Shown here: positions 3,269-32,200 of the stretch, one piece after another
Layout: every line of letters begins with the position of its first letter
Numbering within the stretch: the stretch's first letter is position 1
Virus record (IMG/VR): IMGVR_UViG_3300042434_002493
Location: 1-64,000 of that record
DNA: 64,000 nt
Source of the DNA: a virus
Strand: one strand, 5' to 3'
The notes under the pieces: model-generated
Databases searched by the model: none
What the model was told of the DNA's origin: nothing
Seen by the model: the letters and a program-made list of their open reading frames with translations, nothing else
Translations under genes and position numbers: made by a program

Positions 3269-3913
3269 GTGGCAAAGAAAGAACGCCCACGAGAGAAATG
3301 TACAGCGCATAAGAAAGACGGCTCGCCATGCGGACGGTGGGCGCGCGAGGGCTACCCAGTCTGCCCGATGCACGGCGCCGGGACCGCGAAGCGTGTGCGG
3401 GAGGGCAAGCGCAAAGACCCAGGAAGCGCCGCCCTCAAGAGCGGGCTCTACGCGAAGAAGGCGCACACGCAACTCCGGGAGACCATCAGCGACTACCTCA
3501 AGAGGAAGGCTGACCTCTGGAACCTGAACGCCGTGGCCGCTCGACTTTGGGCGGCGCTCGAACGCTCCGACCAAATCGAGTACGCCATCGACGTCAAGGA
3601 ACTGGAGTCGGCGACTGGTGAGGATCGCGTAGGGCTCGCCGTGGACATGATTCGCCGGCTCCAGTCGTCCGTGACCATCCTCGACAAGCTGGGCAACCTC
3701 ATCTTGAACCGGGAGAAGTTGCTCGTAGCCGGCTCCGACACCCTGACCCGCGGCCAGGTGGTTGCGATGTTCCTTCAGATCCTCAACATCGTGCGCGAGG
3801 TCGCGAGCGACTCGAAGATCGCCCGCGAGGACATCGCGGTGCGGGTGGCCGAGCGCCTTGAAGCCCTCGCGATTCAGCTCGACGGACAGCAGGGCCCGAA
3901 GGCGCGCGCATGA
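3269..3913 (+). CDS. terS: Terminase small subunit (N-terminal HGGxSTG-like Cys/His domain)
   Basis: CTAHKKDGSPC...VCPMHGAG...ALKSGLY. GTG start at 3269 with GGAGA RBS; overlaps the terL start. Confidence 0.75.
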   Translation: MAKKERPREKCTAHKKDGSPCGRWAREGYPVCPMHGAGTAKRVREGKRKDPGSAALKSGLYAKKAHTQLRETISDYLKRKADLWNLNAVAARLWAALERSDQIEYAIDVKELESATGEDRVGLAVDMIRRLQSSVTILDKLGNLILNREKLLVAGSDTLTRGQVVAMFLQILNIVREVASDSKIAREDIAVRVAERLEALAIQLDGQQGPKARA

Positions 3914-12795: not shown

Positions 12796-13971
12796 ATGAA
12801 GTACGAGATCGTTTTCCGCCAAACGTTCAAGGACATGGGCGAGGATCGGACCCACGGTGGGCACCTGCACGCCGAGCAGCGCACAGACAGCCGCGGCCGG
12901 AACATCACCCGATGGGTCCGCACACCCGGCTCAGACGGGGGCGGCGTGCTGCGGTCGGCCAAGAACCGCGAGTCGCTCGGCGACTTCCACGACGACGCGT
13001 TGCACGCTGCCCGGCACAACATCACCGGCCAGATGCGCGCGCACTCGATGAGATCGACGCCCGATCCTCATCGAGTGCGAGCTGCGGGGCACGCGCTCGA
13101 CGCCATCGACAACGAGCAGGCGAATCGCGGACGTGCCGCCGGGCAAAGCCGAGGGTGGATCGACGCCGCGCCCGCGTTGCCGAAGGACACGCAGAGCGCG
13201 CACCAGCGCGCACCAGGCGTCTACAAGCCCGGCCGCGCCGCGTTCCACGACGCCATCGTCAAGAAGTTCATGCACGGCAAGGCCCCGGCCGCGCCTGGCG
13301 AGAAGCCGCACGCCCTCGTGATGATGGGCGGGCCCGGGTCGGGCAAGAGCAGCATCCTCAAGCAGCTCGGCATCGATCTGGACAGCCACGTCCACATCGA
13401 CCCGGACGAGATCAAGCAGCACATCCCCGAGTACCACGTCGCGCGCGCCCACAACGCGAAGAACGCCGCGTTCATGGCCCACGAGGAGAGCAGCGACGTC
13501 GCGAAGAAGCTCCGCGACCATGCCATCCAGAATCGCCACCACGTCCTGATCGACGGCACCGGCGCCAACGGCCCGAAGCACAAGGCGATGGTCGAGGACC
13601 TGAAACAGCGCGGCTACCACGTCACGCTGGCCATGCCGCACATCAGCAAGGAGGAGGGCTTGAGCCGCGTGGCGAAGCGCGCCGAGGGCAACGGCCGATT
13701 CGTCCCGAGCGATGTTGTGGGCGGCGCCTACGACAAGATCCCGGGCAACTTCCACAAGGTCGCCGCCGCCGCAGACGACGCCTACCTCTTCGACAACCAC
13801 GAGAAGTCCCCCCGCCTCATGTACAAAAAGGAGGGCGGCCAGGAGCGCCAGGGGCCGGACGTTCACACCGATCTCCACGCTCAGTTCCTCGCGGCACACG
13901 GCCGAGGCGACGAGGGCGGTAAAGCACTACGCGCGAGCCGCGCGTCTGGGCGGCATCACAGTAGGCACTGA
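12796..13971 (+). CDS. Zeta-toxin (PezT-like) P-loop kinase with N-terminal 25-aa tag
   Basis: MGGPGSGKS, HIDPDEIK, HEES, VLIDGT, GRFVP and YLFDN motifs. Alternative GTG start at 12751. The upstream 10834-12750 part of the tracked ORF is a shadow frame. Confidence 0.88.
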   Translation: MKYEIVFRQTFKDMGEDRTHGGHLHAEQRTDSRGRNITRWVRTPGSDGGGVLRSAKNRESLGDFHDDALHAARHNITGQMRAHSMRSTPDPHRVRAAGHALDAIDNEQANRGRAAGQSRGWIDAAPALPKDTQSAHQRAPGVYKPGRAAFHDAIVKKFMHGKAPAAPGEKPHALVMMGGPGSGKSSILKQLGIDLDSHVHIDPDEIKQHIPEYHVARAHNAKNAAFMAHEESSDVAKKLRDHAIQNRHHVLIDGTGANGPKHKAMVEDLKQRGYHVTLAMPHISKEEGLSRVAKRAEGNGRFVPSDVVGGAYDKIPGNFHKVAAAADDAYLFDNHEKSPRLMYKKEGGQERQGPDVHTDLHAQFLAAHGRGDEGGKALRASRASGRHHSRH

Positions 13972-14220: not shown

Positions 14221-14245
14221 CCCGGCGGCGGGCATGGCGGATTCT
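14217..14245 (+). promoter_or_regulatory. Putative sigma70-like promoter
   Basis: TTGACC-N17-GATTCT upstream of GAGG RBS and ATG 14264. Confidence 0.35.
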
Positions 14246-14263
14246 CGCGGCGAGGTCTGCCCC

Positions 14264-17200
14264 ATGTTTTTCATCCGCATTGAAGGTCTGAAGGCCGAGC
14301 AACTGGCGCTTTTCGGCGGGGCAACACCCGCCTCGAAGCCCCGCCCGACGTCGGCGCCGGCCGGGCAGCTCGACCTCTTCGGAGGCGACCCGACCCACGG
14401 CGGCCACCTGGTCGAGCGCGTGATCTTCACCAAGGCGGGGCACCAGCAGACCTTCCACGTTCTGCCGGTCGAGGCGCCCAAGGCGAAGCGCAAGGCCAAG
14501 CCCGCCATCGGGCCCGACCTGTTCGCCTGGGCAGACCAGGCCACGCCGAGCCAGGTGGCGAGCGCCCTGGTGGACGCGCACCAGCAGGCGAAGCGTCCCG
14601 AGGCGACACCCGAGGACATCGAGCGCCGCGACCAGCTCCTCACGGCCGCGCAGGCACACCAGTCCAACCGGCAGAGCGAGTCGCCCGAGGTCGCGCCGCT
14701 GGCCGATCCGACACCGACTGCAACGCCGGCCGGCACCACGCCCGAAGATGCGCCGGCCGGTACGATCTTCCACGGATACACCTCCGATTACAGCACCCAG
14801 ATCCAGTGGGCGAAACGCGAGGACGGCCAGTGGTTCCGCCGCGGGCAGGACAAGACGCCGCGTGGATACCGCTGGAGCGGGTGGGTCAAGGGCGGCCCGC
14901 CGAACGAGCGCGCGAGCATCCACGGAAGCGGCAACGTAGGGCCCACGCGCATGGCCCGGCTTCCCCAGGAGGGGGGAGCCGACGAGGCCATGGCCGGGGC
15001 GAAGATCATCCCCAACCGCCACACCAAGACCGGCGAGGCGTTGTGGACGGTCCAACTTCAGGACCGTGTCAGCAGCGAGACCTACCAGGAGATCCTCGCC
15101 CACGCGAAGGGCCTGGGGGGCCGCTACAGCAGCTTCAGGGGCAACGGCGCGATCCCCGGCTTCATCTTCAAGACCGAGGACGCCGCCAGAGCGTTCACCG
15201 GCCAGCAGGCCGAAGAGGAGGAGCAGGAGGCCACCGAGCCGGCCGCGGTCAACCCTCCGGTTTCCCCGGAGAGTTCCCCGGCCGAGACGCCCGAGGCCAA
15301 GCCCGATGCCGTCACGCCGACCGCCGACCAGATCCGCAAGGACCCGACCGACGGTGGGCGCCTCCAACCTCGCAAGATCACCGGCAAGGACGGCGTCACC
15401 CGGACGTACTACGTCTCCCAGGACGTCGAGGGCGACGTGGCGGCCAAGCTCGCCGCCAATCCCGACTTCCAGCAGTCGGCCAAGGTCAACCACCGCGACA
15501 ACCTGGTGTTCGCGATCAAGAAGACGGTCGAGGACATGGCCGCCGACGAGGCCGTGGCCCGCAACGAGCTTGGGCACGCCGACGAGCACGCGAAGGGGTG
15601 GGGCCTGTTCTACTTCGACGGCCTCGACCAGATCGGACGCCAGAACTTTTTGGAGGCCGTCGCGAGCAAGCTCGCCCAGAGCGTGCGCGACCAGGAGCCG
15701 GCCAACCTCCCGAGCCGCGAGGCAGAGCCGGCGCAACTACCCGACCCGGTCGCAGAGCCCGCGGAGACCGTCAAGTACCTGGAGAGCGCGCCCGCAGGCG
15801 CCCAGGTGACGCTGGCCCACGACGACGGGCGGCACGTCTGGGAGAAGGGTGAGAAGGGGTGGCGCCCCGAGGGCGCCCCGGATGGCCCGCCCGTCACCGA
15901 CGAGGGCCTGGCGCGCGCCGCCCAGGCCGGCGCCGCGGAGATCGTGGACGGCCCTGCACCGGCGGATGCCGCCCCGCGGCGCACGCTCCAGGAATCCCTG
16001 GAGAGTTTCCGGCAGGGGCTCACGTTGACCGAGGACCAGGCCAAGGGAGACTGGACCCCCCAGCGCATGAGCCGCGCCCACCTGGTAACGAGCATCCTCG
16101 ACCACTTGTGGAGCGACAAGACCGGGCCCAGCGGAGAGCCGACCGACGACATGCAGGCCGCCATGACCCAGGCGGCCGAGGCCGAGGCCGACCGCATCAT
16201 CGCCGAGACGAAGAAGCCCAGGGTCGCGAAGCCCGAGGCTACTGCCAGCGGGCCCAAGGCCAACACCCAGAGCTTCGGCCGCGACCTCACCCCGAAGCAG
16301 CGCAAGGACGCCAACAGCTCCGCCGTCGAGATCATCCAGCGCGCCGTCAGCCAGGGCCGCGAGCTGACCCAGAAGGAGATGGACGAGGTCGCGCTCTACT
16401 CCGGCCGGGGTGGGATCGGCGACTCGCTCAACCAGTACTTCACGCGCCCGGACATCGCCGCGTCCATGTGGGATCTCCTCGCCCATCACGGCCTCGCGCC
16501 GGACGCAAAGGTGCTTGAGCCCGCGTGCGGTTCGGGCGTGTTTATGCAGACCGCCCCCGAGGGCGTGACCATGACCGCCGTGGAGATCGACCCCGAGGTG
16601 GCCCTGGTTGCGTCGAGCCTGCACGGAGCCCGGCACACGGTCCACGCCCAGAGCTTCGAGGAGTTCGCGGTGGCCCGCGAGCGAGGGGTGGGCGACCGCT
16701 TCGACGCGGTCATCACGAACGCGCCGTTCTGCACACGCACCGGCGACGGGGCCCGCATCCACAAGCCCGAGTACACGAGCGCCGACGCCTATTTCGTGGA
16801 CACGGCGCTCGACCAGGTGAAGGAGGGCGGTCTCGTTGCGATGATCGTCCACCGCGGCGTCATGTCGAACGACGGCATGCAGGAGTTCCGGCGCCGAATC
16901 GGAGATCGCGCCGAGCTGGTCGATGCGTTCCGGTTGCCCGTCGAGGCGTTCAAGCACGCCGACACCACCGTCGTTTCCGACGTGATCATCCTGCGGAAGC
17001 GCCCCGAGGTGGTCGCGACCGCGCTCGCCCGCGGCGGCGAGGAAGTCGGGCGAGCCCTCGGGGTGAACGACGAAGACCTCATCTACGGCCGCTGGTTCGA
17101 CGACAAGCCCGACCGCGTCCTGGGGACGGTCGGCAAGGACTGGCGCGGTTCGGATCTCGTCGAGGGCAGCGCCGACGCATGCGCGCCGCTCATCCGCGCC

Positions 17201-20200
17201 CGCGGGGTTGCATCGTGGGCGCACGGCCCGGCCGGCAAGACGATCACGGCCGAGGAGATGGCCGCGCACTCCGACGAGCGCGTGCGCGCCGCCCTGGACG
17301 CCGCGAAGGCCGACGTCGCGATTCCGACGCCGGTGCGCGGCAGCCAGACGGTGATCGCCGGGAAGACGTACATCCTCACCCCGGGCGAGAGCGGGGCCCT
17401 GCGCTGGCGCCGGCTCGACAGCATCGACGACGCACGCGAACTGCTGCACAGCGGAGACGCGGCCCTCAAGAGTGCCGGGGATCTTGCGCTGCGGTACGGG
17501 GATCTGCGCTCCGCGATGGCCCGAGGCGACTACCTGCGGGCCCGTGGCATCCGCCGCAAGCTCCAGAAGGACCTGAACGCCTGGGTCGAGAACTACGGCG
17601 TGCCCGCCAGGCACCCCGAGATCAACGCGCTCGCCGGCCAGGACGCGAACATCGCGCACCTGGTCGCCGCGGTGAATCCCGACAAGACGATGGCCGACAT
17701 CCTGACCTCGGACCCGGTCATCCCGCCCGCCGCCACCGGCGACCGGGCGGTCCCGGCGACGAGCGTCAGCGAGGCCGCCAGCCACCTCGCCACCCACAAT
17801 CCCGGCCAGCCGATCACGGTCGCCAAGCTCCGCGAAGCGTTCCCGAGCACGGCCGAGGACGATGAGATCGTCGCCGGCCTGGTGGAGAGCGGCGAGTACG
17901 TGGACGCCCGCGGGGCCTTCGGTGTCGAGAGCGACGCGCCTGGTGTCTTGCACGCGGACGACTACGCGAGCGGGGATCTCTTCGCTCTGCGCGACCACGA
18001 GTTCGAGCAGGCCGCGAGCGAGGACGACGCGACCCGCCAGCGCGCCGAGGCCCGCCTTGCCCTCGTGCAACGCCACATCGACGAGCGGTGGCGTCCGCTC
18101 GACCAGGTCGAGGTCTCCGTCCGCAGCGGGTGGATTCCGCCCCACGTCATCGAGGCGTGGCTCAACAGCCCCGACGTGATCGCCGACTGGCACAAGGCCA
18201 GTCAGTTCAAGGTCACGGAGGCCGGGGGCGTCTACACGGTCTCCTACTTCGACGAGGCCAAGGGCAAGCGCGTCAAGCACAGCGGAGAGCCGGACCACGT
18301 CCCCGCCCGCAACATCCTGCGCTACATGAACCGCCTACCCCTGCACGGAGAGCGAGCCCGCGACGAGGCCGAGGCTGAGGACGAGAAGTTCCGCTCGTGG
18401 CTCGCCTCTTCGGACCTCCGAGGGGACGTCGAGGAGATTTACAACCGCCGCTTCACCGGGCAGGTCCCGAGGCGTTTGAACAGCACGCCGATGAAGATCG
18501 ACGGGTTGCAGAAGGAGTTGTGGCCCTACCACTACGAACAGATCCGATGGAACACAGACCGCCGGGGCGGGATCGTCGCGATGGACGTCGGACTGGGCAA
18601 GACGTTCAACACCATCGCAACCGCGCGCCAGATGCGCGTCACAGGCCAGGCCCGCAAGGTGGCCGTCACCTGCCCGAAGTCGGTGATCATCAACTGGAGC
18701 AAGGAGATCGAGGACCTGCACCCGGGCGCGAAGGTCATGATCGTGGGGGCGACGAGCAAGGAGAAACCCAAGAAGACCTGGCGCGACCCCACCGTGCCCG
18801 AGTACGTGGCCGTCACCGACAACGACGAGACCTTGACGAAGAAGCTCGCCGACATCGCCGCCAACGACTACGACCTCGTTCTCTTCACCTACGAAGCGCA
18901 GGCCCGCATCCCCGTCCGCGACGACAACGTCACGCGCTTCGAGGGCGATGATTTCTGGTCTCGACGAGCGTCGAAGTTGAGCGACAGCGAGGCCACGGTC
19001 GCCCAGTCCGCCGAGACCCGCCAGAAGAAGCTCGCCCAGGCGCTCGCCTCCTACCAAGCCGAGCGCGCCAAGCTCGGTTTCAACGTGAAGCAGTCCATCA
19101 TCCACTGGGAGGATCTGGGCATCGACACGATGTTCGTGGACGAGGCCCACAACTTCGCCAACCTCGGGAGCCCGCGCTCCCGAGGAGGGCAGGTCAAGAT
19201 GATGGGGAGCAGCTCCGACAACGTGAAGCGGGCTCACGACCTGCAATTGAAGGCCGCTCTGGTGCGCGAGCGCCGCAAGCCCGACGAGACCGACGACGCC
19301 TACCAGCGCCGCATGGACGAGAACAAGGAGCAGGGCCTCGGCGTCAACGGCAACGGCGTCTTCATGCTGACCGCGACGCCTGCGAAGAACAGCCCGATGG
19401 ACGTCTACCACCTCATGCTCCAGGCCACCCCGCAGGTCTGGCGCGAGGTCGGCGTGCGCAACCTCGAAGAGTTCATCGACCGCTACGTGGACATCGAGGA
19501 GCGGCCGATCATCAACACCGAGCAGAAGGCCGAGATGGCGAACTGCGCGGTCGGATTCAAGAACCTCATCGAATTGCGCGCGGTCATGGAGCGCGGACTG
19601 AGGCGCCGCACCGCCAAAGAGGTCAACCTCAAGGTGCCGCAGACCGAGCGCGAGGAGCACCTCGTGGACATGACGCCGCAGCAGCACAAGGCGTTCCGCG
19701 ACATCCGCGACGAGTTCGAGCGCCGCAAGCTCGACAAGGACGAGCGGGTCGCCAATTCCGCGACCCTTTGGCTTCTGCACCAGCTCAACGCCGCCGGCAC
19801 CGATCTGTCCCTACTCTCCGATGAGCACCCAGAGCACGCGGGCGAGTGGCGGCACAGCCCGAAGTACCACGAGGCCGTGGGCACCATCGTGAAGAACCTC
19901 AAGAGCGGGCGTGGCGGCCAGGTCGTATTCATCGACCGCAACGCCAGCCACACGCACATGAAGAATCTCCTGGTGGAGGCAGGCATCCCCGAGAGCGAAA
20001 TCGAGATCCTGAACGCCACGACCGCGGCCGACGCGGACAAGCGGTACGCGGTCAGCGAACGCTTCAACCTGGGCAAGACCCGGGTCGTCATCGGGAACAC
20101 CGGGACGATGGGCGAGGGCGTCAACCTCCAGAAGAACACGAGCGATCTGCACCACCTCGACCTACCGTGGAGCCCCGGCAAGTACCACCAGCGCGAGGGC

Positions 20201-21391
20201 CGCGCCGTCCGACAAGGCAACAAGTACGGCAAGGTGCGGATTCACACCTACTTCTCGAAGCGCAGCTTCGACAGCTACCGCCACGCCATCTTGAGCGGCA
20301 AGCAGGGGTGGGTCTCGAACCTGTACAGCGGAGGCGATTACGCGGAGAACACCGAGGAGGGGGAGGACTTCAGCCCCGAAGAGTTGCAGATCATGTTGGC
20401 CGACGACCCCGACGAGGCCCGCAAGGTCTTCGAGGCGAACAAGGGGGCCCGCGTGGCCGCCCTCCAGGATGCGGCCCGCGCGAAGGCCATGCGCGACTGG
20501 CAGGGAGTCATCAAGCGCCGCAGCGCGCTGGCGAAGATGGCCGACAAGACCAGTCACGCGGCCCGGCGCCTCGAAGACACCATCCGCCTCGACACCGCGC
20601 GACTGAAGCGGGTGACGGAGTTGCCCAAGCCGCTGCGCGCCGCGCTCGACTCCGACCTCCCATGCGTCGCCGTGCCCACCACCGGGGCGATCATCAAGGT
20701 CGGCGACGTCATCCTCCCGAAGAACGGCAACGTGCTCGAAGACGCGCACGTCGTAACCGACGTGGACCCAGTCAAGGGCGCGGTCTCGATTCGACCGTTC
20801 GGCCGCAAGCGCCCCGCCTACTACGGCAAGCACACTCTCACAGCGGCCGAATTGCCGGCCTACGTCCACCACGAGGGCCCGGAGACGGAGGCGGACGCTT
20901 ACAGGCCGCAGGTCCGGGAGAAGCTCGCCGCTGCGGCGAAGTTCCCGACGCTGGCCGGGCACGACCTCGCAGAGATGCGAGACTGGCCGGAGGCGATCCG
21001 GCGCGAGTTCGAGCCCGAGGCCCGACAGATCGCCGCCGCCGCCGTCTCGCACGTCAACCCATACGGCCACGTTTTCGTGCGCCATGGCGACACAGTGAAG
21101 GCTGTCCGCGGCGACAGCCCGGAGGCCAAGAACGCCGCCCCCCTTCTACCGTGGGGCGAAGACCGCGAGGCCATCCTGCGGGGCCTGGTGACTCACCTGC
21201 GCACCGAGGGCAAGAAGCAGGTGGTCACGCAGGGCAAGCGCGGCTCCATGAATTACACCGGGCGCTACGAGTACCAGCCGAGCTACGAATGGAAAAATGC
21301 TCACGCCCGCGTCGTCGGCGGGCGGGGAGACGACTACGGGCTTGAGCAGGAGGCCATCAGGCGCATCCACCAGGAGGACCAGGCGAAATGA
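14264..21391 (+). CDS. DarB-like giant protein: N6-adenine DNA methyltransferase + SNF2 helicase, with tagged N-terminal extension
   Basis: LEPACGSG (~16514), NAPF (16718), DVGLGKT (18584), DEAH (19139), LTATP, GEGVNLQ, QREGRAVRQGN; tag copies at 14387 and 15341. Confidence 0.9.
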   Translation: MFFIRIEGLKAEQLALFGGATPASKPRPTSAPAGQLDLFGGDPTHGGHLVERVIFTKAGHQQTFHVLPVEAPKAKRKAKPAIGPDLFAWADQATPSQVASALVDAHQQAKRPEATPEDIERRDQLLTAAQAHQSNRQSESPEVAPLADPTPTATPAGTTPEDAPAGTIFHGYTSDYSTQIQWAKREDGQWFRRGQDKTPRGYRWSGWVKGGPPNERASIHGSGNVGPTRMARLPQEGGADEAMAGAKIIPNRHTKTGEALWTVQLQDRVSSETYQEILAHAKGLGGRYSSFRGNGAIPGFIFKTEDAARAFTGQQAEEEEQEATEPAAVNPPVSPESSPAETPEAKPDAVTPTADQIRKDPTDGGRLQPRKITGKDGVTRTYYVSQDVEGDVAAKLAANPDFQQSAKVNHRDNLVFAIKKTVEDMAADEAVARNELGHADEHAKGWGLFYFDGLDQIGRQNFLEAVASKLAQSVRDQEPANLPSREAEPAQLPDPVAEPAETVKYLESAPAGAQVTLAHDDGRHVWEKGEKGWRPEGAPDGPPVTDEGLARAAQAGAAEIVDGPAPADAAPRRTLQESLESFRQGLTLTEDQAKGDWTPQRMSRAHLVTSILDHLWSDKTGPSGEPTDDMQAAMTQAAEAEADRIIAETKKPRVAKPEATASGPKANTQSFGRDLTPKQRKDANSSAVEIIQRAVSQGRELTQKEMDEVALYSGRGGIGDSLNQYFTRPDIAASMWDLLAHHGLAPDAKVLEPACGSGVFMQTAPEGVTMTAVEIDPEVALVASSLHGARHTVHAQSFEEFAVARERGVGDRFDAVITNAPFCTRTGDGARIHKPEYTSADAYFVDTALDQVKEGGLVAMIVHRGVMSNDGMQEFRRRIGDRAELVDAFRLPVEAFKHADTTVVSDVIILRKRPEVVATALARGGEEVGRALGVNDEDLIYGRWFDDKPDRVLGTVGKDWRGSDLVEGSADACAPLIRARGVASWAHGPAGKTITAEEMAAHSDERVRAALDAAKADVAIPTPVRGSQTVIAGKTYILTPGESGALRWRRLDSIDDARELLHSGDAALKSAGDLALRYGDLRSAMARGDYLRARGIRRKLQKDLNAWVENYGVPARHPEINALAGQDANIAHLVAAVNPDKTMADILTSDPVIPPAATGDRAVPATSVSEAASHLATHNPGQPITVAKLREAFPSTAEDDEIVAGLVESGEYVDARGAFGVESDAPGVLHADDYASGDLFALRDHEFEQAASEDDATRQRAEARLALVQRHIDERWRPLDQVEVSVRSGWIPPHVIEAWLNSPDVIADWHKASQFKVTEAGGVYTVSYFDEAKGKRVKHSGEPDHVPARNILRYMNRLPLHGERARDEAEAEDEKFRSWLASSDLRGDVEEIYNRRFTGQVPRRLNSTPMKIDGLQKELWPYHYEQIRWNTDRRGGIVAMDVGLGKTFNTIATARQMRVTGQARKVAVTCPKSVIINWSKEIEDLHPGAKVMIVGATSKEKPKKTWRDPTVPEYVAVTDNDETLTKKLADIAANDYDLVLFTYEAQARIPVRDDNVTRFEGDDFWSRRASKLSDSEATVAQSAETRQKKLAQALASYQAERAKLGFNVKQSIIHWEDLGIDTMFVDEAHNFANLGSPRSRGGQVKMMGSSSDNVKRAHDLQLKAALVRERRKPDETDDAYQRRMDENKEQGLGVNGNGVFMLTATPAKNSPMDVYHLMLQATPQVWREVGVRNLEEFIDRYVDIEERPIINTEQKAEMANCAVGFKNLIELRAVMERGLRRRTAKEVNLKVPQTEREEHLVDMTPQQHKAFRDIRDEFERRKLDKDERVANSATLWLLHQLNAAGTDLSLLSDEHPEHAGEWRHSPKYHEAVGTIVKNLKSGRGGQVVFIDRNASHTHMKNLLVEAGIPESEIEILNATTAADADKRYAVSERFNLGKTRVVIGNTGTMGEGVNLQKNTSDLHHLDLPWSPGKYHQREGRAVRQGNKYGKVRIHTYFSKRSFDSYRHAILSGKQGWVSNLYSGGDYAENTEEGEDFSPEELQIMLADDPDEARKVFEANKGARVAALQDAARAKAMRDWQGVIKRRSALAKMADKTSHAARRLEDTIRLDTARLKRVTELPKPLRAALDSDLPCVAVPTTGAIIKVGDVILPKNGNVLEDAHVVTDVDPVKGAVSIRPFGRKRPAYYGKHTLTAAELPAYVHHEGPETEADAYRPQVREKLAAAAKFPTLAGHDLAEMRDWPEAIRREFEPEARQIAAAAVSHVNPYGHVFVRHGDTVKAVRGDSPEAKNAAPLLPWGEDREAILRGLVTHLRTEGKKQVVTQGKRGSMNYTGRYEYQPSYEWKNAHARVVGGRGDDYGLEQEAIRRIHQEDQAK

Positions 21392-21708
21392 CCCCCACGA
21401 AGGAGTCCGCGACCATCCTGGTGCAGATGCTTCAGACGCACCCGGCCTACTACCTGAACTTCGGGCCCTACTGGTGGATCGTGAAGCGGTGGTTGCTGCG
21501 CCTGGGGTTTACGCGCGCCAACACCCGCCACCTGGGAACGTACACGGACCCGCAGGCCCGCGCCTGGTACACCGACCGGCCGTTTCTCAGCGCCATCGAG
21601 CAGGCGTTCGCCTACCAGGCCGAGCGCGCCCAGAACTGCCCCGGCTCGCCGTTCTGCCAGACGCCAGACGGTGAGGACTACATCCTGGAAGACCAGGACG
21701 CCGAATGA
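21388..21708 (+). CDS. Hypothetical protein
   Basis: ATGA overlaps on both sides; aromatic-rich 106-aa product. Confidence 0.7.
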   Translation: MTPTKESATILVQMLQTHPAYYLNFGPYWWIVKRWLLRLGFTRANTRHLGTYTDPQARAWYTDRPFLSAIEQAFAYQAERAQNCPGSPFCQTPDGEDYILEDQDAE

Positions 21709-24700
21709 ACCCCGCCGCCCTGTTGCTCCAGCTCCAAGCCAACCGGGAAGCCGGCAAGGCCATCGACCGCAGCGACACCGCGACCGCATCCCTGCTTCCC
21801 GCGCTGGACGCCGCCGGTGACATCGACCACGGCGGGCGGCTCCACGCCGAGATGCGAACGGACAAGCGCGGGCGGACCCAGCATCGGCACGTCCGATGGG
21901 AGGAATTGAAGGGCGAAGACCTGGTTCACCAGGGCTACGTCAAGGCAGGCAGCCCCGCCGCGTTCGAGGCCCTGGGGGGGGACGAGTTCGCCGATCCGTC
22001 ATGCGCGCGGTGCGGGGCACGGATCAAGCACGCCTACCTGACCAACCACGGGCCCCTGGGGGGCGACTGCCTGGCGACGTTGACTGGCGACGACAGTTCG
22101 CGCGCCGCGGCGCGCCGGTTCGTGGAGAAGCTCGACAAGGCGCAGGACAGCGCCCACCGGAGCAAGCGTACCCTGGCCGTTCTGACACTCAGCTTCGACC
22201 AGCACGCCGGCCAGATTCGTGCCGACTTCCAGCTCACCAACGGCCGCCCGTGGTACGGCGCCGCTGGTGACGCTCGCCACGCGGTCATGTTCCACGCCGC
22301 CGCTTCCCAGTGGGCCGAGGCCCGAGGCTTGGAGGTGGACGAGCATCTCTCCGGGGACGAGAGCGCGCTCGCCGCCGCCAAGCGCATCGCCAGGGAGCGC
22401 CGGGCCGAGTTACAGGCCCGTGCCACCAGCAAGGCCGAGCAGGAAGTAGCCCGCATCCGCAGCGAGTCCCTCCGCCGCCTAGACGGCGTCCTGGCATTCC
22501 TGAAAGCGCCGCAGAACTACCGCCGGGCGCCCGTCGAAGCCGACTGGTTTTTCGGGCCCCTGAAAGCCCAGGCGGCAGACGCGATCCGAGAGCAGGTTGG
22601 CTTCCGCGTTCGCAGGTTCCGCAACAGTCGCGGCGACGAACTGACGGAGGTGTCCGCGCGTCAACAGGGGCGCGGCCCCATCGTCGGCATGTTCCCGCCC
22701 GACGACTACGACGACCTCATCGACCGAATCCAGAGCGCAGGCTTTGAGGTGGAGAGCCAGGAAGCCGCCAAGGCCCTGCCGCTCGACCCCCCGCCGCAGG
22801 TCCGCCGGCCGCAGGAGCACCACCACCACGGCAGCGTGAAGGTGCCGGGTCTGCCGACGGTGGACGTCGAGACGCCCGAGGGCACCGTGCGCCGGGGAAA
22901 GGGCAAGGACGGGGAGCCGTGGGCCGTGCTCATGCCCGCGCACTACGGCGAGTTTCGCGGCACGCTGGGCGTGGACGGCGACGCCGTGGACGTGTTCGTG
23001 GGCCCCGAGCGCGACGCGCCGACCGCGTGGGTCATCCGCGCGAAGGACCCGACGACAGGACGCTACGACGAGGACAAGGTCATGGTGGGGTTCGCCACCC
23101 GCACCGAGGCCATTCGCACCTTCCGCGCCTCGTACAACGTGCGCGGCGTGCTGGGCGAGGTCACGGGCGTCCCGGTCGCCCGTCTTGGGGCGCTCCTCGC
23201 CGATGCGAGGCACCGCGGTCTCCCGCTCAACATGCACAAGGCCGAGAGCCGCGAGCCGCCGCCGGCCGGGCCCGACTCTTCCCTGGACGACGCCTGGCGA
23301 CGCCTGGAGCATGTCCGCCAGCAGATCGCCGAGCTGGCCGACACGCACGAGGGGGGGAAAGCCATCGACAAGAAGGACACCGCCACCACGAGCATGTTCG
23401 ACCTCATGGGCGTGGGCGATCCGAGCCACGCCGGCCGACTTCACGAGGAGACCCGGACGGACGCGACCGGGCGCACCCAGAAGCGGTGGATCGCGTCGCA
23501 AGAGGCGGAGCCCGAAGGCACCATCCGGCATGGCGACCTTGTTTCGCGCCCCGCCACGGTGCGAAGTGAGCACGGCGAAATGATGGGCGGTTCTGGCAAC
23601 GCCTACACCCCAGACGGCGAGGCGTTGATCGCGCTCCCGCAACCGGGATTCGTGATCGGTGACGTGGAGATCGACGCAGCGCACCGTGGAAAGGGCCACG
23701 GACAGGCCCTCTATCTCCGGGCGATGGCCGAGCACGGGAGGCTCTACTCCTCGTGGCCAGTGAGTAAGGATGCGTTTCGCGTTCACGACGCCCTCGTCCG
23801 CAAGGGTCTGGCCACGCGCCGCAACGTCGAGACCGACGGCACCACGTTCACCGTTCTGGAGCCGACTGGGCAAGCCACGACGCCGCCCGAGGGTCTGGTG
23901 CAGATCGGCGAGCGAGCGCCCCGCGGGCGCGCGCCGACGCCCACGACCCCAGGCATGCGCGCCCAGGGCCGTCTCGACGGACTGGGCCACGAGCCGAGCC
24001 CGCCGCCGGCTCACCCCGAGCCGTCTCTGCGCGACTACGACACGATCCTGGTGAACAGCTCCGCCGGCAAAGACAGCCAGGCGATGCTCGACTACGTCGT
24101 CGCGAAGGCGCGCGCCGAGGGTGTGCTCGACCGCGTCGTCGTCGTGCATGCCGATCTGGGCAGGGTCGAATGGGAAGGCACACGCGAGCTGGCCGAGGCG
24201 CAGGCCAAGCACTACGGACTGCGCTTCGAGGTGGTGACGAAGACCAAGGGCGACCTCATCGAGCAGATCGACCAGCGCGCCGTGGACCTTCAGCAGCGCA
24301 GTCACGACGCGGCCACCCTCGCCGCGGCCGGGTTTCGCACTTGGGGCGATCTGGCGGGGGCGAGCGCCGAGACACTGGCCGGGCTGATCGGCAAGGCCCA
24401 GGCGGACGCAGCGCAGCCGACCGAGGAGCGAGCTGCCAAGCTCAAGCAGGCCGCAGAGCGCAAGCTCAAGGGCGGCAAGGCCGCGACAGACCCGGTGGAC
24501 TTCGGCAAGGAGATCGCGTGGCCGTCGAGCGCGTCGCGCTACTGCACCTCCGACCACAAGCGCGGTCCCATCCGCACGCTCATGACGCGCCTGACCAGCG
24601 AGTTCGACCGCAAGGGCGCGCCGGTGCGCATCCTGAACTGTATGGGCCTGCGGGGCGACGAGAGCAGCAACCGCGCCAAGATGCCGACGTTCGAGCACGA

Positions 24701-26234
24701 CGACGCGGCGAGCAACGGCAAGCGTCATGTGGACGAGTGGTTGCCGATCCACCACTGGAATGAGGGCGACGTCTGGCGCCGCATCCGCGACGCCGGCACC
24801 CCCTACCACGGCGCCTACGACCTCGGGATGCGCCGGCTTTCGTGCGTGTTCTGCGTGTTTGCCACCCGCGACGACCTGAAGATCGCCGCCCACGCCAACC
24901 CGGCCCTGTTCCGCGAGTATGTCGCCCTGGAGCGCCGCGTGGGGCACAAGTTCCGGGCGGACCTCGCGCTGGCCGAACTGCACGACGCGATGGCCGCGGA
25001 CGACGACCGCACCGAGGCATCGAAGGCCGCCGAGCAGATGCGCCTCTTCGGTGACCCGACCCACGGCGGCCACCTGCACGTCGAGGTCCGCACCGACAAG
25101 AGCGGCCGCACCGAGCGCCGCCACGTCCGCACCGGCTCGTTGCACACCGAGATGGGCCACGCGGGGGCGCCCGCGCCAGGCGAGCGCGGGCACATCACCC
25201 TCACGCCCGAGCGAGCCGAAGCCGAGCGCCGGGCCGGCAACATCATGGAGCACGTCGGGCGCATCTTCGACGGGGGCGAGGTACACCTCATCGAGGGCGC
25301 CATGCACGACGCCGGGCACACCCGAGAGTGGGCGCCGGACGAGAGCGGGGACGAAACTCCGTTGACCATTCGAGACGACGAGCTGCCCGGTCTGCTTGGG
25401 ATGCCCGAGTGGAGCCCGGAGGACGCCGCCGACGCTGTTGCTCTGGTTGCCGATTCAACCGCGCACGGTGGGGTCATGCCCGGCGCCGTCGTGCGCGAGG
25501 TATTGGCGGACGCCATCGCGCCGGCCGGCAAGCTGCGACTCGTCAACGTGTCGCTCGACGAGGCCCGCGACTTTGTCGCCAAGCACCACAGCCAGATGCC
25601 CGAGATGAACCCCCGCGGGCTGATCTACGCCGTGGGGTGCATGAAGGGCGGGCGCCTGGTGGCCGTCGCGACCGCCGGCACGCCGACCGGGCGATGGGGC
25701 AACGGGCGGGTGGACCCGCGCAACATTCTGGAGCTGACCCGCATCGCGTCCGACGGCACCACGAAGGGGGCGTCGTCGAAGCTCGCCGCGCGCATGATTG
25801 ACCTCCTCGACCGCTCCAAGCGGGGCGACGCCGATGCCCCCGCGCTGTTCGTGACATACAGCCTGGGGACCGAGGACGGCACGACCTACCGCGCGCTGCG
25901 AGAGAAAGGTCTGCGACCCGTGGCGCTGGTCCACGGCAAGGCCGCCGGTGGGGGCGGGGCCCGGTCAGGCAACCGCCTGGGATACGCCGAGCCCGACAAG
26001 ATCCGATGGGAGGCCGGCGCCGCGGCAGGCCCGGCCCGCTGGGATCTGCTCGAAGGCGCGAAGGCCGGACCCATCGCCAACGCCCCCGGCACTGATCCGC
26101 TACTTCCGCCCGACGAGGCTGCCAAGAGCTTCGGCGTCGTCGTCGCGTTCAAGGCCATCGACGAGGCAGATCGGGCAATGGCCCGAGGTACTGCTCCAGG
26201 TCGCCCTGCGGTTCAAGTAGCCGCGGGCGATTGA
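21705..26234 (+). CDS. Polyvalent multi-enzyme protein: unknown Cys domain + inorganic pyrophosphatase-like + GNAT + PAPS-reductase-like + Mom/XF1762-like acyltransferase; three tag copies
   Basis: HYGEFRGTLGVDGDAVDVFVG...YDEDKVMVGF (InPase); HRGKGHGQALY (GNAT); SAGKDS...RYCT...GLRGDES...RLSCVFC (PAPS reductase); EARDFVAKHH...LELTR...VTYS...GTTYRA (Mom/XF1762-like). Confidence 0.85.
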   Translation: MNPAALLLQLQANREAGKAIDRSDTATASLLPALDAAGDIDHGGRLHAEMRTDKRGRTQHRHVRWEELKGEDLVHQGYVKAGSPAAFEALGGDEFADPSCARCGARIKHAYLTNHGPLGGDCLATLTGDDSSRAAARRFVEKLDKAQDSAHRSKRTLAVLTLSFDQHAGQIRADFQLTNGRPWYGAAGDARHAVMFHAAASQWAEARGLEVDEHLSGDESALAAAKRIARERRAELQARATSKAEQEVARIRSESLRRLDGVLAFLKAPQNYRRAPVEADWFFGPLKAQAADAIREQVGFRVRRFRNSRGDELTEVSARQQGRGPIVGMFPPDDYDDLIDRIQSAGFEVESQEAAKALPLDPPPQVRRPQEHHHHGSVKVPGLPTVDVETPEGTVRRGKGKDGEPWAVLMPAHYGEFRGTLGVDGDAVDVFVGPERDAPTAWVIRAKDPTTGRYDEDKVMVGFATRTEAIRTFRASYNVRGVLGEVTGVPVARLGALLADARHRGLPLNMHKAESREPPPAGPDSSLDDAWRRLEHVRQQIAELADTHEGGKAIDKKDTATTSMFDLMGVGDPSHAGRLHEETRTDATGRTQKRWIASQEAEPEGTIRHGDLVSRPATVRSEHGEMMGGSGNAYTPDGEALIALPQPGFVIGDVEIDAAHRGKGHGQALYLRAMAEHGRLYSSWPVSKDAFRVHDALVRKGLATRRNVETDGTTFTVLEPTGQATTPPEGLVQIGERAPRGRAPTPTTPGMRAQGRLDGLGHEPSPPPAHPEPSLRDYDTILVNSSAGKDSQAMLDYVVAKARAEGVLDRVVVVHADLGRVEWEGTRELAEAQAKHYGLRFEVVTKTKGDLIEQIDQRAVDLQQRSHDAATLAAAGFRTWGDLAGASAETLAGLIGKAQADAAQPTEERAAKLKQAAERKLKGGKAATDPVDFGKEIAWPSSASRYCTSDHKRGPIRTLMTRLTSEFDRKGAPVRILNCMGLRGDESSNRAKMPTFEHDDAASNGKRHVDEWLPIHHWNEGDVWRRIRDAGTPYHGAYDLGMRRLSCVFCVFATRDDLKIAAHANPALFREYVALERRVGHKFRADLALAELHDAMAADDDRTEASKAAEQMRLFGDPTHGGHLHVEVRTDKSGRTERRHVRTGSLHTEMGHAGAPAPGERGHITLTPERAEAERRAGNIMEHVGRIFDGGEVHLIEGAMHDAGHTREWAPDESGDETPLTIRDDELPGLLGMPEWSPEDAADAVALVADSTAHGGVMPGAVVREVLADAIAPAGKLRLVNVSLDEARDFVAKHHSQMPEMNPRGLIYAVGCMKGGRLVAVATAGTPTGRWGNGRVDPRNILELTRIASDGTTKGASSKLAARMIDLLDRSKRGDADAPALFVTYSLGTEDGTTYRALREKGLRPVALVHGKAAGGGGARSGNRLGYAEPDKIRWEAGAAAGPARWDLLEGAKAGPIANAPGTDPLLPPDEAAKSFGVVVAFKAIDEADRAMARGTAPGRPAVQVAAGD

Positions 26235-26259
26235 GCCGCGGCGCGGCGCAGGGTACAAC
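26231..26259 (+). promoter_or_regulatory. Putative promoter for a leaderless transcript
   Basis: TTGAGC-N17-TACAAC-N6-ATG(26266); no clear SD sequence. Confidence 0.45.
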
Positions 26260-26265
26260 GGCCGC

Positions 26266-29200
26266 ATGGCCCAGCCCGCGCAGCTCAACATTTTCGGCGG
26301 TCAAGATCCCATCCGCAACGGCGGCGATCCTTCGCACGGCGGGGCCCTTCACCAGGAGCGGCGCACCGACAGCCGAGGAAGGACCGAGACGAAGTGGGTC
26401 CGTGACCCCAACGACCGACGCACCGTGGACTTGGAGAAGCTGATCGCACTCAAGGAAATGGGCCGCCGGGTGGACCGGCCGACCCTGTTCCGGTGGGCAG
26501 CCGGCCGGGTGAAGCACGACCCGGACACCTGGACGGCCTACCGCAAGTCCACAGCCGAGGAGACCCGCCAGGAAGGCGAGCAAGAACTGCGTCGCCGGTA
26601 CGCCTGGCATCAGACGTTCGGCGAGCACACGCCGTTTCACCCCGCAGCGATGAGCGATCACATCACCGGCAGCTTCGAGGCGGAGGCCGCGAAGGCCGTC
26701 ACGTTCTACCTCGCCGTGATCTTCGCCGAGGGTGGCAAGGCCGGCCCCATCGCCAACCGGCCGGGCCTGGTATTCGACTACATGAGCCGCCGTTGGAAGC
26801 GGGTCGAGCCCCACGAGGAGGGCGTTCACCTCGACGAAGAGGCCGGGCAGGCTCACGTCGTCCCTTGGAAGCCGAAGCGCGACAAGAATGAGACGATGAG
26901 CCAGGAGGACTGGCAGGGCTTCATCGACGACGCGAACGAGCCACTCCACGAGCGGGCCGCGAAAATGAACGCCACACTGGCGCACTACAAGGCGGGGCAC
27001 CTGGAGTTCAAGAACCCCAGGGGCGACGGCCACGCGGTCATCATCCCGGATGCGAGCGAGCCGGGCCGCTGGCGTTACTCCGAGTACGACAAGAGTGGTT
27101 TCTCATCGCACACGACTCACGACACCCCAATGCAGGCCGCCGCCGCCGCCGGGGAGGCCGGTTTCACCGAGCCGGCGCCCGGCAGCCTGGATCGGCTTTC
27201 GCAGACCGAGGAGTGGGATCGCGGGACTCGCTCCGCCAAGATCAACCAGCTTGGCGGAGAACTGAACTGGAAGGGGCACCACGAGGCCGACCTGGCGGTG
27301 CGCAATCACTACGCCCGCCACGGCTGGAGCGCCGAAGCCTACCAGCGCATCATGCAGCCCGACGTCCTGGCCGCCGTCCGCGCCGGCCAGGTGCATCCCG
27401 AACTGCTCAAGGCCATCGCCGATCACCGCGAGGGTTTCAAGGCCGCGCCGAAGCTAGACTTCGGCGAGACGGCCCCGTCCGGCGAGCGGTGGATTACCGT
27501 CCGCCCCAACGGACCCGACGCCAAGGGTGTCCCGGTCCTGGTGCAGGTCCACCCCCACAACCCGCGCCAGGGCCACATCATCGGCGGCGCCGGGGGCAAG
27601 ATGAACCTGCGCCGGCTCAACCTCAAGACCCCGGAGGAGTACCGGGCCGCCGCCGCCGCGCGACGCAAGAACCGACGCAAGAGCGAGAGCACGCAGGTTG
27701 ACACAGGCCAGAGGGCCGCGCTCGAAGAGGTCAAGGGCGAGCACCAACAGCGCCGCAGGGCCGCCGCCGCCCAGGTACTCCGCCACGCCGGGCATCACGA
27801 GCTGGCCGACAAGATCGCCGCCGGCCCGCTGGCAGGCCAGGAGAGCGAGCACAAGGAGGCCGTCGCCGACGGCTACCGCAAGGTTCGCGTGCTCATGGCC
27901 AACGCCCGCCGAACGCTCGCCCAGGACACCGACGCCCGCGAGGCCGCAGGTCTGGGGGAGCTTCCGGCGACGAGCGGAGACGGGGGAATCGGGGCGAGCG
28001 ACATCGCCGGCAGGCAGGTCATGCAGGGGGGCCTCGACTACAAGCGCGACCGGGCCGCCCTGAGCGACCAACAGGCCGATCTCGCCCGCGCCCAGGCCCT
28101 TCGCTCGCGCCTGGACGCCGATCTGCAACACGGCGAGCCCATCGACGCGCTCACCACAGCGCAGCGGTACGCCCGCGCCGCGAACCTTACCCACCGCGAC
28201 ATCGAGGCCGCGGGCCCCGTCGAGATCGCCGCGTTCGCCCGGCTGGCCAGCCGGCGCCTGAAAGCGTTCCGGCGGCTCCAGGAGGCCGTCACCGAGGCCG
28301 GCGGGGACAACACCGCGCCCACCATGCCCGACGAGGCTCGCGAGGCGATGGACGACATGGCCGCGGTCGTCAGCGGCAGCGGGCAGGATGCCATCGACGC
28401 CATGACCGATCCCGCGCGGAACGAAACCGCGCGCAAGGGACTACAGGCCGCCGTGGACCACGGCCTCATGGACCCGCAGCGCGAGCGGGACATGACGGCC
28501 CGTATCGAGCAGGCGCGCCGACAGTCCGCCGGGGCTCCCGAGCTTTCGCAGCTCAACCAGGAGCACGTCGAGTCTCTCCCGGCCCGCGCCATCGCCATCG
28601 TGGCCAACGACGCCGCGCACGCGATCCGCCGCATGCGCACCGCGGCCCCCGAGGATCTGCGCAAGCTCGCCGAGCAGGTGGGCGAGGAGGTGCCGACCAT
28701 CAAGGGCGCCGCCGATGCGCTCGGCGAAGAGGCCCTGATCTCCGGCGAAGCCACCGACGCACAGCGCCGCTCGTTCTTGCGCCAGGCGCTCGCGTCCGGC
28801 GTGCTCACCGGCGACGCCACACCGCCGAAGGCTGCCGCCGATCCGTCCCTCGAAGTGAACGACGGGGCAAAGGCCCGCGCGATCTTCGAGGCCGGGTTGA
28901 AGGTCAAGGGTCTCGACAAGGAGGCCCGGCGCCGCCGCAACGCCATCATGGCCGGAGACCTGGCGGGCGCCGCCTCGCAACAGTGGGAGGCCCCCCGCGG
29001 CGGAGCCAACGACCCGACGCAGCAGCTCGCCGACCACCCTTCGACCGAGATGGTCGCCGCGGTGCAAGGCGAGGTCCGCACCCAGCGCGCCCGCGCGTTT
29101 CTGGGGCAGGTCAATCAGACCTACCAGGACATCGGCCAGATGCTCGACGAGGACCAGGACGCGGCGCACGCCGATCTGGGCCGCCACATGAGCCGGGGCA

Positions 29201-32200
29201 GCTTCGACGCGGTCAACCACCACGCTCAAGAGATCCTGCGCAGCGCGACCATCGACCGCAACGTCGTAGACCTCCTCGGTTCGGAGGGGGCCGCACAACT
29301 CCTCGCTTGGCAGATCCGTCAGACGCACCCGGAGCAGGCCGAGGCATTGACGCAGGCGGTCGGCGACTATCACCTGCGCCTCCAGGACACCCACATCCCC
29401 GAGGCGATGGACACCTCGCGCGACGCCTACGAGGCCGCCCACGAGGTTCACCAGGGCATGCAGGAGCAGGGCGACCTGCGCGAGTGGCAGGCGCTCAACC
29501 GCCAGCGCATCGAGCACCTCGACCAGTCGCGGCAAACGCTGGGCCGGACCTTGGGTTACCTGGAAACGTCCGCGGCTTTGCACGCCGCGATGCTTTCGCC
29601 GGCAGCGCACCCGATCCGCGTCTCCGCCGGGCCGGTCGATGCGACGCAGCTCGCAGCCCACGCGCGCGCCGCCGGACTCGGAGACGACGACTTCCACATC
29701 GAGCACGACGGCAAGAACGGGTGGTTGACGGTGCAGCCGGCAGCGTTCGGCAAACTTGTCCGCCCGGTCGATGCCGAAGAGGTCCGCCTCGACCGTGACA
29801 TGGAGGCCATCCGCACGGGCCAGCAGGACGACCCGACGTGGCGCCCGGCCGGGTTTATGCAGCGCACCGACGTCCGCCCCGAGCAGCGTTTCAAGGGTGA
29901 GGTCCCGCAGAACGCGCAGCCCTTCGACTACGGACTCGCCGAGCACGCGAACATGCACGAGGCGATGGGCACCTACATCGCCCAGCGCGTCCACGACGGG
30001 TGGCGGCCCGTGGACATCATGCGCGATCTCCAGAACACCGGCGAGCACATGGGCGGCATCGCCGCGGGGGTCGGCGAGGCCGACCTCCAGAGCCCGCAGG
30101 TGCAGGCGTGGCAGGAGTTGCACCCCGAGCCGCCGAAGACCGTGGCAGCCCAGGACGACGGGCAGGCGCGAATGCCCTGGGACCCCGAGCCCGAGCCCGG
30201 ACCCAACCCCGCCCACGCCAGTTGGGAGCAGGACCGGCGCGAGATCGCGGCCAAGGGCAAGCTTGCCGCGTTCCACGAGGCTTTGGCCGCCCACATGCCA
30301 TCGAGAGCGCAGGACAAGAATCAGAGCCTCCAGCAGGCCGAGGAGCACGCCCCGCACTTCATGGAGCTGGCCAGGCAGCACGCCGAGCGGGTGGGCACAG
30401 CGGGGACGTTGCACCACCAGCAACTCGACCCGACGTTGGCGAATGACCTCGCCTTTCGGGTGCTGGGCCGGCACCCGGCCGCGGTGGGCGCGTGGAAGCC
30501 CGTCGAACAGTTGGGCCACCACGAGCGCGCCGCTTTGCGCGAGTCGTTCTACCGCTACTTCCACAGCCGACAGGGGGAGATGCCGCAGGAGCTTCACCCC
30601 GAGGCCGTCATGGCAAAGTGGGCGAGCAAGAACCCGGAGCCGGCCCGCGACAACACCGCGCAGGGCGATCTCCTCGGTTTCGGCAGTCTCCCCGGCATGG
30701 GGGGATTCGGCGCGCCGTCGCCGGAGGACATCGAAGCCGCCGAGGCCGAAGCTGGCCACGCGCACGAGCGATGGGAACAAGCCCTCGTTGAGCACGAGCG
30801 CGCCCAGGCGGGCATCGCCGATCCCAAGGCCGCGTTTCTCTCCCAGGCGAAAGAGCACGTCGAAAGCGTCGCCCGCCACCTGGCCAAGACGACGAAGACG
30901 CACAACGACGACGCCCACCCCGAGGTCGCCGCGGCCCGGGAACGACACAGGCACGCGCAGGACGTGGCCGCGTTGCGCGCCGAGCCCGACGCGGCCACGC
31001 CCGACGCGCTCCGCGCAGCGCACGGAGCCTACCGATCCGCCACAGGTGCGGCTCAGAGCGCCGTCGTGCAGTTGGCGCGAGCCGAAGACGCGCGGAGCCG
31101 CTCCGCCGCGCAGGCGTTCGATGCCCGTCACCACGACGCGAGCCCGGAGTGGAAGGCGTGGCGCAAGGAGCGCGACGAAGCCGAGCGCGCCGCACACCGG
31201 GCAGCCTCGCGCTACGACGCCCCCGACTGGAACACCTACGTCGCCAGCCACGGCGGCGCGCCGCAGGCGTACCAGGCGCTTCAGGATTTCGTGCGCTCCC
31301 GGTTCGTGCAGGAGTTCCGCACGCTCTACCAGGACCACGCCCAGAGCCCGCTCCAGATCGGCGTGCAGGCGGTGGCCGGCGCCGCAGGCCACCGCCTCGC
31401 CTTCGACCCAGACTGGCGCGACCGTGTGCGCCGCACCGCCAACGCAGCCGGCGCGACCGCGCGCACACGCGCAGCCGGCGGGCGGTTCAGTTCGGACCCG
31501 TACAAGGAGGCGCGCGAGCGGTTCCAGGCCCAGGCCCGCGAGATGGCCAATCGACAGACCAGCAACGTGGGCGAGGTCAATCCCGATCCGCGGCGAGCGC
31601 CCGACCTGGACGAGCGATACACCCTCGGGCAGGCCGCCGAGGGCCAGCTCGCCAACATCGTCGGGCAGCACGCGAGCATCATCGACCCGAGGCAGACGTT
31701 CGAGGCTCGCTCCGCTGACTTTTCGGGGCCGGGCGCCAAGCGGCAGCGCGCGATCAAGGCGTGGAAGCGCAGCCGCAAGATCGGGATGTTCCTCGGGACG
31801 GGCCAGGGCAAGACGACCGTCGCGTTCGGCACCTTCGCCGACCTCAAAGGCGAGGGCCGGGTCCAGCGGGGCGTGTTCGCCGTGCCCAGCATCGTGCAGG
31901 GCCAGTTCGGAGGCGAGGCGTTGTCCTTTGTGGACCCCGCCCACATGCGCTGGCACGCGAAGCCCGGCGAGGGCAAGGCCGAGCGCATGGCCGCCTACGC
32001 CGACCCGGAGAAGCACGTTGTCGTCGTGACGCACCAGGCGCTTCGCGACGACGTCACCGAGATGGTCGCGAAGCACCTCGGGATGAGCCGCGAGCAGGTC
32101 GCCGCACACATGACGGACGGCGAGGTGCAAGCCCAGGCGCCGGAGGTCCCCCACCTCGACAAGATGCGCGACCTGGCGAGGATCACGCCCGAGCAGATGC

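Follow-up and report, generated by a model that had tools for sequence, protein, structure and literature searches.

Optional clamp-motif-like peptides in the leaders of predicted virion cargo enzymes of an uncultured phage

The window analysed here, the first 64 kb of IMG/VR virus record IMGVR_UViG_3300042434_002493, is the head module of an uncultured phage. DNA of the record (80,435 bp, provirus class, 93% complete, ∼70% G+C) was found in lake-water metagenome sequencing runs. Large enzymes encoded among the head genes carry copies of a ∼27-residue tag, and upstream of several tags stand pentapeptides resembling the one by which bacterial proteins bind the replication sliding clamp, DnaN. 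A preliminary description of the sequence took these peptides for docking sites on the host clamp, used once the enzymes have been injected. Do they dock there, or does a peptide confined to head-module cargo have some other partner? We found the peptide to be a short linear motif, optional and independent, that lies in a disordered leader and is separate from both a predicted cut site and the tag. Docking of the delivered enzymes on host DnaN is the leading reading of what it does, though a tentative one.

Q-type motifs, Thr-type leaders and the tag

Four peptides with a leading glutamine, here called Q-type motifs, were present in the translation where the preliminary description had placed them, and the spacings it gave to the tag (two residues for QLDLF, one for QMRLF) held. 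They are carried by P0001 (a DarB-like methylase-helicase), P0002 and P0003 (a helicase protein).

14300-14314, + strand: QLALF, Q-type motif 1 of the P0001 leader; one residue after EGLKA, 24 before the tag at 14387
14366-14380, + strand: QLDLF, Q-type motif 2 of P0001; two residues before the tag at 14387
25035-25049, + strand: QMRLF, before the third module (Mom/GNAT-like) of P0002; one residue before the tag at 25053
26281-26295, + strand: QLNIF, residues 6-10 of P0003; ten residues before the tag at 26326

In P0001, 17 residues separate QLALF from QLDLF. The proposed cassette member QGDLLGF (30661-30681, + strand) had to be dropped: it lies outside the cassette, no tag follows it, and other residues take its place in the orthologue of the close relative G001, whose portal is 87% identical. 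A further look-alike, QAGLF at 52262, occurs in an 853-residue protein (gene 50999-53554) downstream of a tail-fibre-like gene and is kept in G001; it is probably in a folded domain and unrelated to the cassette.

In proteins this long, with so much Ala, Gly and Leu, short pentapeptides might be taken for chance matches in low-complexity sequence. However, in 25 likely proteins of the window (16,550 residues) the pattern Q[LMI]x[LMI]F matched four times against 0.33 expected, and 0 of 2000 shuffles reached four. All four strict matches sit just upstream of a tag, with none elsewhere in the window proteins. QLALF and QLDLF are identical in P0001, its G001 orthologue and P0005, and the linker between them diverges; such strict conservation beside diverging linkers also speaks against chance. 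Together with the enrichment in independent homologues given below, the shuffle test refutes the chance reading, to which we attach a negligible probability.

The tag itself, DPxHGGxLHxExRTDxxGRTxxRWV, is basic and has eight copies in the window. A Q-type motif precedes three of the eight, a second kind of leader, the Thr-type, precedes three, and the remaining two have neither.

9617-9697, + strand: tag of P0004, an Ala/Lys-rich protein
12844-12924, + strand: tag of the zeta-toxin-type kinase, at residue 17, with no Q- or Thr-type motif upstream
14387-14467, + strand: first tag of P0001
15341-15421, + strand: second, divergent tag within P0001, with no motif upstream
21819-21899, + strand: tag of P0002 module 1
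23418-23498, + strand: tag of P0002 module 2
25053-25133, + strand: tag of P0002 module 3
26326-26406, + strand: tag of P0003

The Thr-type pattern, KAIDxxDTxTxS[ML][FL], was likewise found in the translation before the three tags for which it had been described.

9545-9586, + strand: KAIDKKDTGTLSMF, directly after the EGAKA cut motif of P0004; tag at 9617; kept in G001 (P0011)
21756-21797, + strand: KAIDRSDTATASLL, P0002 module 1 (pyrophosphatase); tag at 21819; the relative P0055 has TASLF there
23358-23399, + strand: KAIDKKDTATTSMF, P0002 module 2 (GNAT-like plus PAPS-reductase-like); tag at 23418

Q-type cargo with known domains consists of DNA enzymes: an N6-methylase with SNF2, SNF2 alone, a C5-methylase and Mom-like modules. 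A division with the Q-type on DNA enzymes and the Thr-type on other enzymes was considered and rejected; the Thr-type also precedes an N6-methylase and a Mom-like module. The Thr-type may bear a resemblance to TonB boxes or to the clamp-binding tails of T4 and RB69.

Conservation was followed at two distances. The close relative G001, a 64.6-kb IMG/VR contig with an 87%-identical portal, shares the cassettes with the motifs unchanged, including QMRLF and QLNIF (the latter in P0017). It also has an extra tagged module, EGAKA-M-QLSFL-tag (L010:11286-11501, − strand), and its Mom-like module has QLALF after the tag; near-identical phages have evidently come to differ by gain and loss of cassettes. 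Farther out, a tag profile searched against 1.84 billion representative proteins gave 49 matches, ∼35 of them real and the remainder unrelated repeat proteins. Among independent high-GC homologues, 15 of 22 tags had [QT][LMI]x[LMI]F within 45 residues upstream, where 0.024 was expected per stretch; nine of the 15 were strict Q-type. Among low-GC homologues the count was 0 of 13; there the tag (DPSHGGKLVKKQITDK...) follows a hydrophobic-hydrophobic-K-A motif within at most six residues. The co-occurrence of motif and tag in homologues, which the preliminary description proposed as a check, holds for most high-GC tags, but not for low-GC tags, nor for two of the window's own eight.

Typical high-GC forms are LKA-QLGLF-GG, LKA-L-QLSLF-GG, MKS-QMNLF-GG and KA-x4-D-x2-T-M-D-L-F-GG. 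From motif to tag the gap runs from 1 to 38 residues, with a linker rich in Pro, Ala and Gly. The motif is doubled in P0001 and its orthologues, P0015 has three copies of QLGLF, and in P0010, P0023, P0009 and one G001 module it lies downstream of the tag. AlphaFold2, run on a 13-row cassette alignment, left the leader with both motifs unstructured (predicted local distance difference test, pLDDT, ∼50) and folded the tag into a hairpin of two strands (block pLDDT 76-91). It is this variable gap, copy number and order, in a disordered leader, that makes the motif independent and optional. A cassette of cut site, clamp-like motif and tag, as had been proposed, does recur in G001 and many high-GC homologues, but with the motif optional and the spacing and order variable.

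Other searches returned little. No Pfam family matched the tag at E values up to 10, a profile search of PDB sequences gave no match to it, and no paper was found in a literature search with its letters. With tblastn, two tag-bearing queries against 50,697 isolated phages produced nothing aligned under a tag; P0042 was matched by residues 202-535 only, and the DarB-like leader had no match. Scans of species-representative genomes gave no capsid-protein relative, and their single tag match proved false, an out-of-frame reading of a cobalamin gene. Scanning IMG/VR and metagenome contigs for the pattern turned up just three loci besides the close relative, and a word-index protein search by tag profile gave four proteins, long proteins having crowded the candidates. 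The tag-bearing phages are a lineage known from metagenomes only.

Candidate partners of the motif

The canonical clamp-binding definition is Q-phi-x-[L/M]-[F/L] or Q-phi-x-[L/M]-x-[F/L] (PMC11139829). QLxLF is its highest-affinity form, and QLDLF is the strongest pentapeptide (PMC11139829). Three of the four Q-type motifs in the window, QLALF, QLDLF and QMRLF, fit this published definition, as the preliminary description's comparison with QL[SD]LF had suggested, and so do nearly all homologue Q-types (QLGLF, QLSLF, QLNLF, QMNLF and QIGLF among them). In two further respects the Q-type resembles motifs of clamp clients: it stands in a disordered terminal setting, and it is kept beside diverging flanks. 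Also on the side of the clamp are the DNA-enzyme nature of the Q-type cargo and the record as a whole, in which no phage-encoded clamp was detected.

A fold of the leader with DnaN, proposed earlier as a check, was run for residues 12-85 of P0001 together with E. coli DnaN in two copies, a stand-in that may differ from the clamp of the host. It scored 0.59, against 0.00 for the best of three controls, and was graded as weak support; across the runs at least 69% of contacts agreed and partner pLDDT was at least 53. Of 78 solved complexes, 51 reached the mark applied, as did 2 of 108 mismatched pairs; passes at a score of 0.60 or less came from only 5 of the 78 solved complexes, and all 4 mismatches that passed fell in that range. 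Because many clamp-peptide complexes have been solved, and E. coli DnaN served as a stand-in, the co-fold shows likeness rather than binding.

The clamp reading can be set out as a sequence of steps. The prohead protease would cut the K-A site within the head, and the universal tag, the removed propeptide or both would handle packaging or ejection. The optional Q-type motif would then be left at or near the new N-terminus. After injection it could dock the methylase-helicase, the Mom-like modifier and the SNF2 helicase in the hydrophobic pocket of host DnaN and so keep them on DNA, much as Hda or Mu MuC rely on N-terminal clamp motifs. The leader order that this supposes is a putative cut site E-[GA]-x-K-A, an optional [Q/T]-[L/M]-x-[L/M/I]-[F/L], a Pro/Ala/Gly linker and the tag. 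That Q-type motifs dock delivered enzymes on host DnaN is possible, and it is the reading we would put forward first. The stronger statement, that head-protease cleavage exposes a bona fide clamp-binding peptide on packaged anti-defence and DNA-modifying enzymes, which load on the clamp after injection and move along DNA with it, as a general delivery principle of a widespread uncultured phage lineage with tagged polyvalent cargo, is offered quite tentatively. Tethering to DNA is more plausible than the clamp sequestration also suggested before, which would be unlikely for a few dozen injected molecules.

If docking on DnaN is true, injected phage enzymes would use the host replication clamp as a track. 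This would account for the ability of a few dozen methylases, helicases and base modifiers to find DNA and remain there, and they would form a new class of clamp clients.

Several observations weigh against such docking. QLNIF, with Ile at position 4, falls just outside the canonical definition. The Thr-type leaders have Thr where the Q-type has Gln (TLSMF, TASLL, TTSMF). Clamp-motif Gln is important though not absolutely essential, its loss greatly lowering affinity, and the delta subunit is the only known clamp client without it (PMC11139829). The Thr-type nonetheless occupies the same alignment column as the Q-type and replaces it, so the earlier suggestion of a variant motif stands as to position but not as to the Gln. 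In the P0002 Mom-like module the motif is QMRLF, and a 58%-identical module of P0024, from another phage, has KALDVGDQRTGDLF in its place, so that the two types look interchangeable on the same enzyme. Were the two types to share a partner, it might be something other than the clamp. Known clamp clients show neither Gly-Gly after the Phe nor triple copies. A clamp would also have to be loaded on the incoming DNA before tethering could help. Finally, the Q-type motif was not found on the phage's other DNA enzymes and is confined to head-module cargo, a pattern that a role in packaging would fit as well. Genes for an MT-A70-type methyltransferase and a RecU-like protein lie beyond the window (L023:5221-6516, − strand; record 69221-70516), both without a Q-type motif. 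No host marker was detected in the 16 kb of the record beyond the window.

The confinement to head-module cargo, in a leader beside cut site and tag, suggests an alternative in which the motif serves as address or anchor, recognised by some partner from the phage in the assembling head, and its clamp likeness is coincidental. Candidate partners are the inner capsid surface, the scaffold, a DarA/Hdf-like organiser and the Ulx-like protein. The Q- and Thr-types would then be two versions of one hydrophobic peg (h-x-h-F), which suits their interchangeability and the poor fit of the Thr-type to published clamp rules. Two or three copies on Pro-rich linkers would suit a repetitive capsid lattice, and the Dar proteins of P1 are packaged in an ordered, partner-dependent way (PMC12810830). 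Yet the zeta-toxin-type kinase and 13 of 13 low-GC tagged proteins keep cut site and tag without the motif, so packaging in this family seems not to need it. Nor is its position fixed, as it can follow the tag, and the exact QLxLF match (QLDLF, QLGLF, QLNLF) would be a striking coincidence. On balance we regard a head partner as rather unlikely. Should the motif turn out to direct cargo to the capsid, phage packaging would have a new signal, one mimicking a motif of the host.

An optional linear motif that is conserved, disordered and retained at the N-terminus of the mature enzyme might bind another host hub, or a phage ejection factor acting for example at a tail-channel or membrane step, in place of DnaN. 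The longer fixed pattern of the Thr-type, KA-x4-D-x2-T-h-[SD]-h-F, exceeds any clamp motif and would be at home here. On the other side, a literature search with the motif gave clamp papers plus one chance match in a mosquito proteomics paper, and we know of no other hub with this consensus. We think this alternative improbable.

Whichever partner is correct, foreign proteins could be loaded into phage heads by means of this modular leader of cut site, optional motif and hairpin tag.

Predicted cut sites, propeptides and gene layout

The motif E-[GA]-x-K-[AS] is found in all cargo, at module starts. Further copies stand at the N-terminus of the capsid protein and at the C-terminus of the portal, the scaffold-like protein has three, and a 343-residue protein has one close to its C-terminus. 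This is the distribution expected of a head-protease site, and on these grounds we predict cleavage there; no prohead protease gene was recognised by sequence in the record. Two putative propeptides carry it.

14264-14296, + strand: MFFIRIEGLKA, 11-residue hydrophobic propeptide of P0001 (from the translation), with EGLKA at 14282-14296
37600-37617, + strand: EQGLKA in the major capsid protein propeptide, not followed by a Q/T motif

With many Q-type motifs beginning 0-1 residue past K-A, and every Thr-type in a fixed position relative to K-A, the motif might be the downstream (P') half of the prohead-protease site or set the order of cleavage. However, the cut motifs of the capsid, scaffold-like, portal and other non-cargo proteins have no Q/T motif after them, from which it follows that the motif is not needed for cleavage. 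In addition, for several motifs the nearest K-A is 20-40 residues away or the tag comes first, and low-GC relatives place K-A directly before the tag. A role as protease determinant is therefore very improbable.

P0005 and P0043 start at a Met equivalent to 14264; the annotated P0001 ATG at 14234 seems not to be the true start, and the Met at 14264 probably is. The P0001 propeptide resembles MIVRIFGLVEALKA and MLIVFQAAAKA of other members; perhaps it targets the protein to the capsid and is then removed. The major capsid protein has a 27-residue N-terminal stretch (37537-37617) that ends in EQGLKA and is 100% identical in G001. A second recurring peptide, EG[AG]KAG-PIAN[AR]PG (26052-26090 and 26728-26766), directly follows a cut-site motif at two places, residue 155 of P0003 and a point close to the P0002 C-terminus. 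G001 has GGIANRPGLV ahead of a weak tag-like match, and P0024 begins with a similar PIANKPG; the PIAN[AR]PG peptide may be another leader type.

The cargo genes are flanked by those for terminase, portal and major capsid protein, with portal and capsid on either side.

3910-5805, + strand: large terminase (phrog_675)
6365-8215, + strand: portal
between the portal and P0004 genes, + strand: unknown protein, 419 residues
9473-12754, + strand: P0004, Ala/Lys-rich, 1093 residues
12796-13971, + strand: zeta-toxin-type kinase (Pfam Zeta_toxin, E 1e-31)
14234-21391, + strand: P0001, DarB-like methylase-helicase, 2385 residues (N6_Mtase, SNF2, Helicase_C)
21388-21708, + strand: Ulx-like small protein, directly 3' of the P0001 gene (phrog_1629, E 4e-11)
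21705-26234, + strand: P0002, 1509 residues (InPase; GNAT-like plus PAPS-reductase-like; Mom-like modules)
26266-34761, + strand: P0003, helicase protein, 2831 residues
between the P0003 and major capsid protein genes, + strand: 343-residue protein, then 294-residue scaffold-like protein
37537-39024, + strand: major capsid protein

P0001 combines N6_Mtase, SNF2 and Helicase_C, and P0002 combines InPase (PF18823), PAPS_reduct and a Mom-like module; homologues bear LPD1 and ART-PolyVal domains. By domains and gene block alike, the cargo proteins are of the P1-Dar-like polyvalent type. The zeta-toxin-type kinase has an EGGKA site near its C-terminus, with no Q/T motif, and is presumably another packaged effector.

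Comparison with known systems

Bacterial clamp clients (Pol II, Pol III alpha, Pol IV, UmuC, MutS and Hda) share the pentapeptide pattern QL[SD]LF with the phage leaders; QLDLF is the clamp consensus peptide, QLGLF is the motif of Pol II, and Hda has its N-terminal clamp motif in a disordered segment, as the phage leaders do (PMC11139829). Unlike those clients, which are replication and repair proteins, the phage motifs stand on polyvalent enzymes that are predicted virion cargo. They are often followed by Gly-Gly, may come in two or three copies, and are replaced in some modules by the Thr-type.

Phage Mu offers a closer case. MuC has two clamp motifs, N- and C-terminal, both required for clamp binding and function, and Mor functions with just DLF of the consensus (PMC12867686). 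The near-consensus motif at the extreme N-terminus of MuC (QHDLF) and the presence of two motifs per protein are like the phage cargo, and the DLF-only motif of Mor is a partial precedent for the Thr-type without Gln (PMC12867686). Yet both Mu proteins are small regulators that are synthesised after infection, unpackaged and unprocessed, with no tag or cut site. If the cargo enzymes do dock on DnaN, they would parallel MuC on the clamp and, in animals, DNMT1 on PCNA.

The layout of the cargo genes is that of the Dar system of P1 (DarB methylase-helicase, Ulx, DarA and Hdf): in the window too, a giant protein with N6-methylase and SNF2 is followed by a Ulx homologue in the head gene block. The Dar antirestriction proteins are packaged and injected, and the DarA propeptide is removed by the head protease (PMC12810830, PMC11437467). 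Neither a clamp motif nor a hairpin tag nor a repeated leader cassette has been described for P1. The survey of polyvalent proteins from which the InPase domain was defined (Iyer et al. 2017, PMC5512222) has no mention of a clamp and describes none of these three features, and no injected or virion protein with a clamp motif came up in literature searches.

T4 internal proteins share a short N-terminal propeptide, the capsid-targeting sequence, that ends at a head-protease site. There the address is removed by cleavage, whereas the motif and tag of the phage cargo lie after the predicted cut and would stay on the mature enzyme. We found no published report of the cassette; it relates to known clamp-motif clients and to packaged polyvalent proteins.

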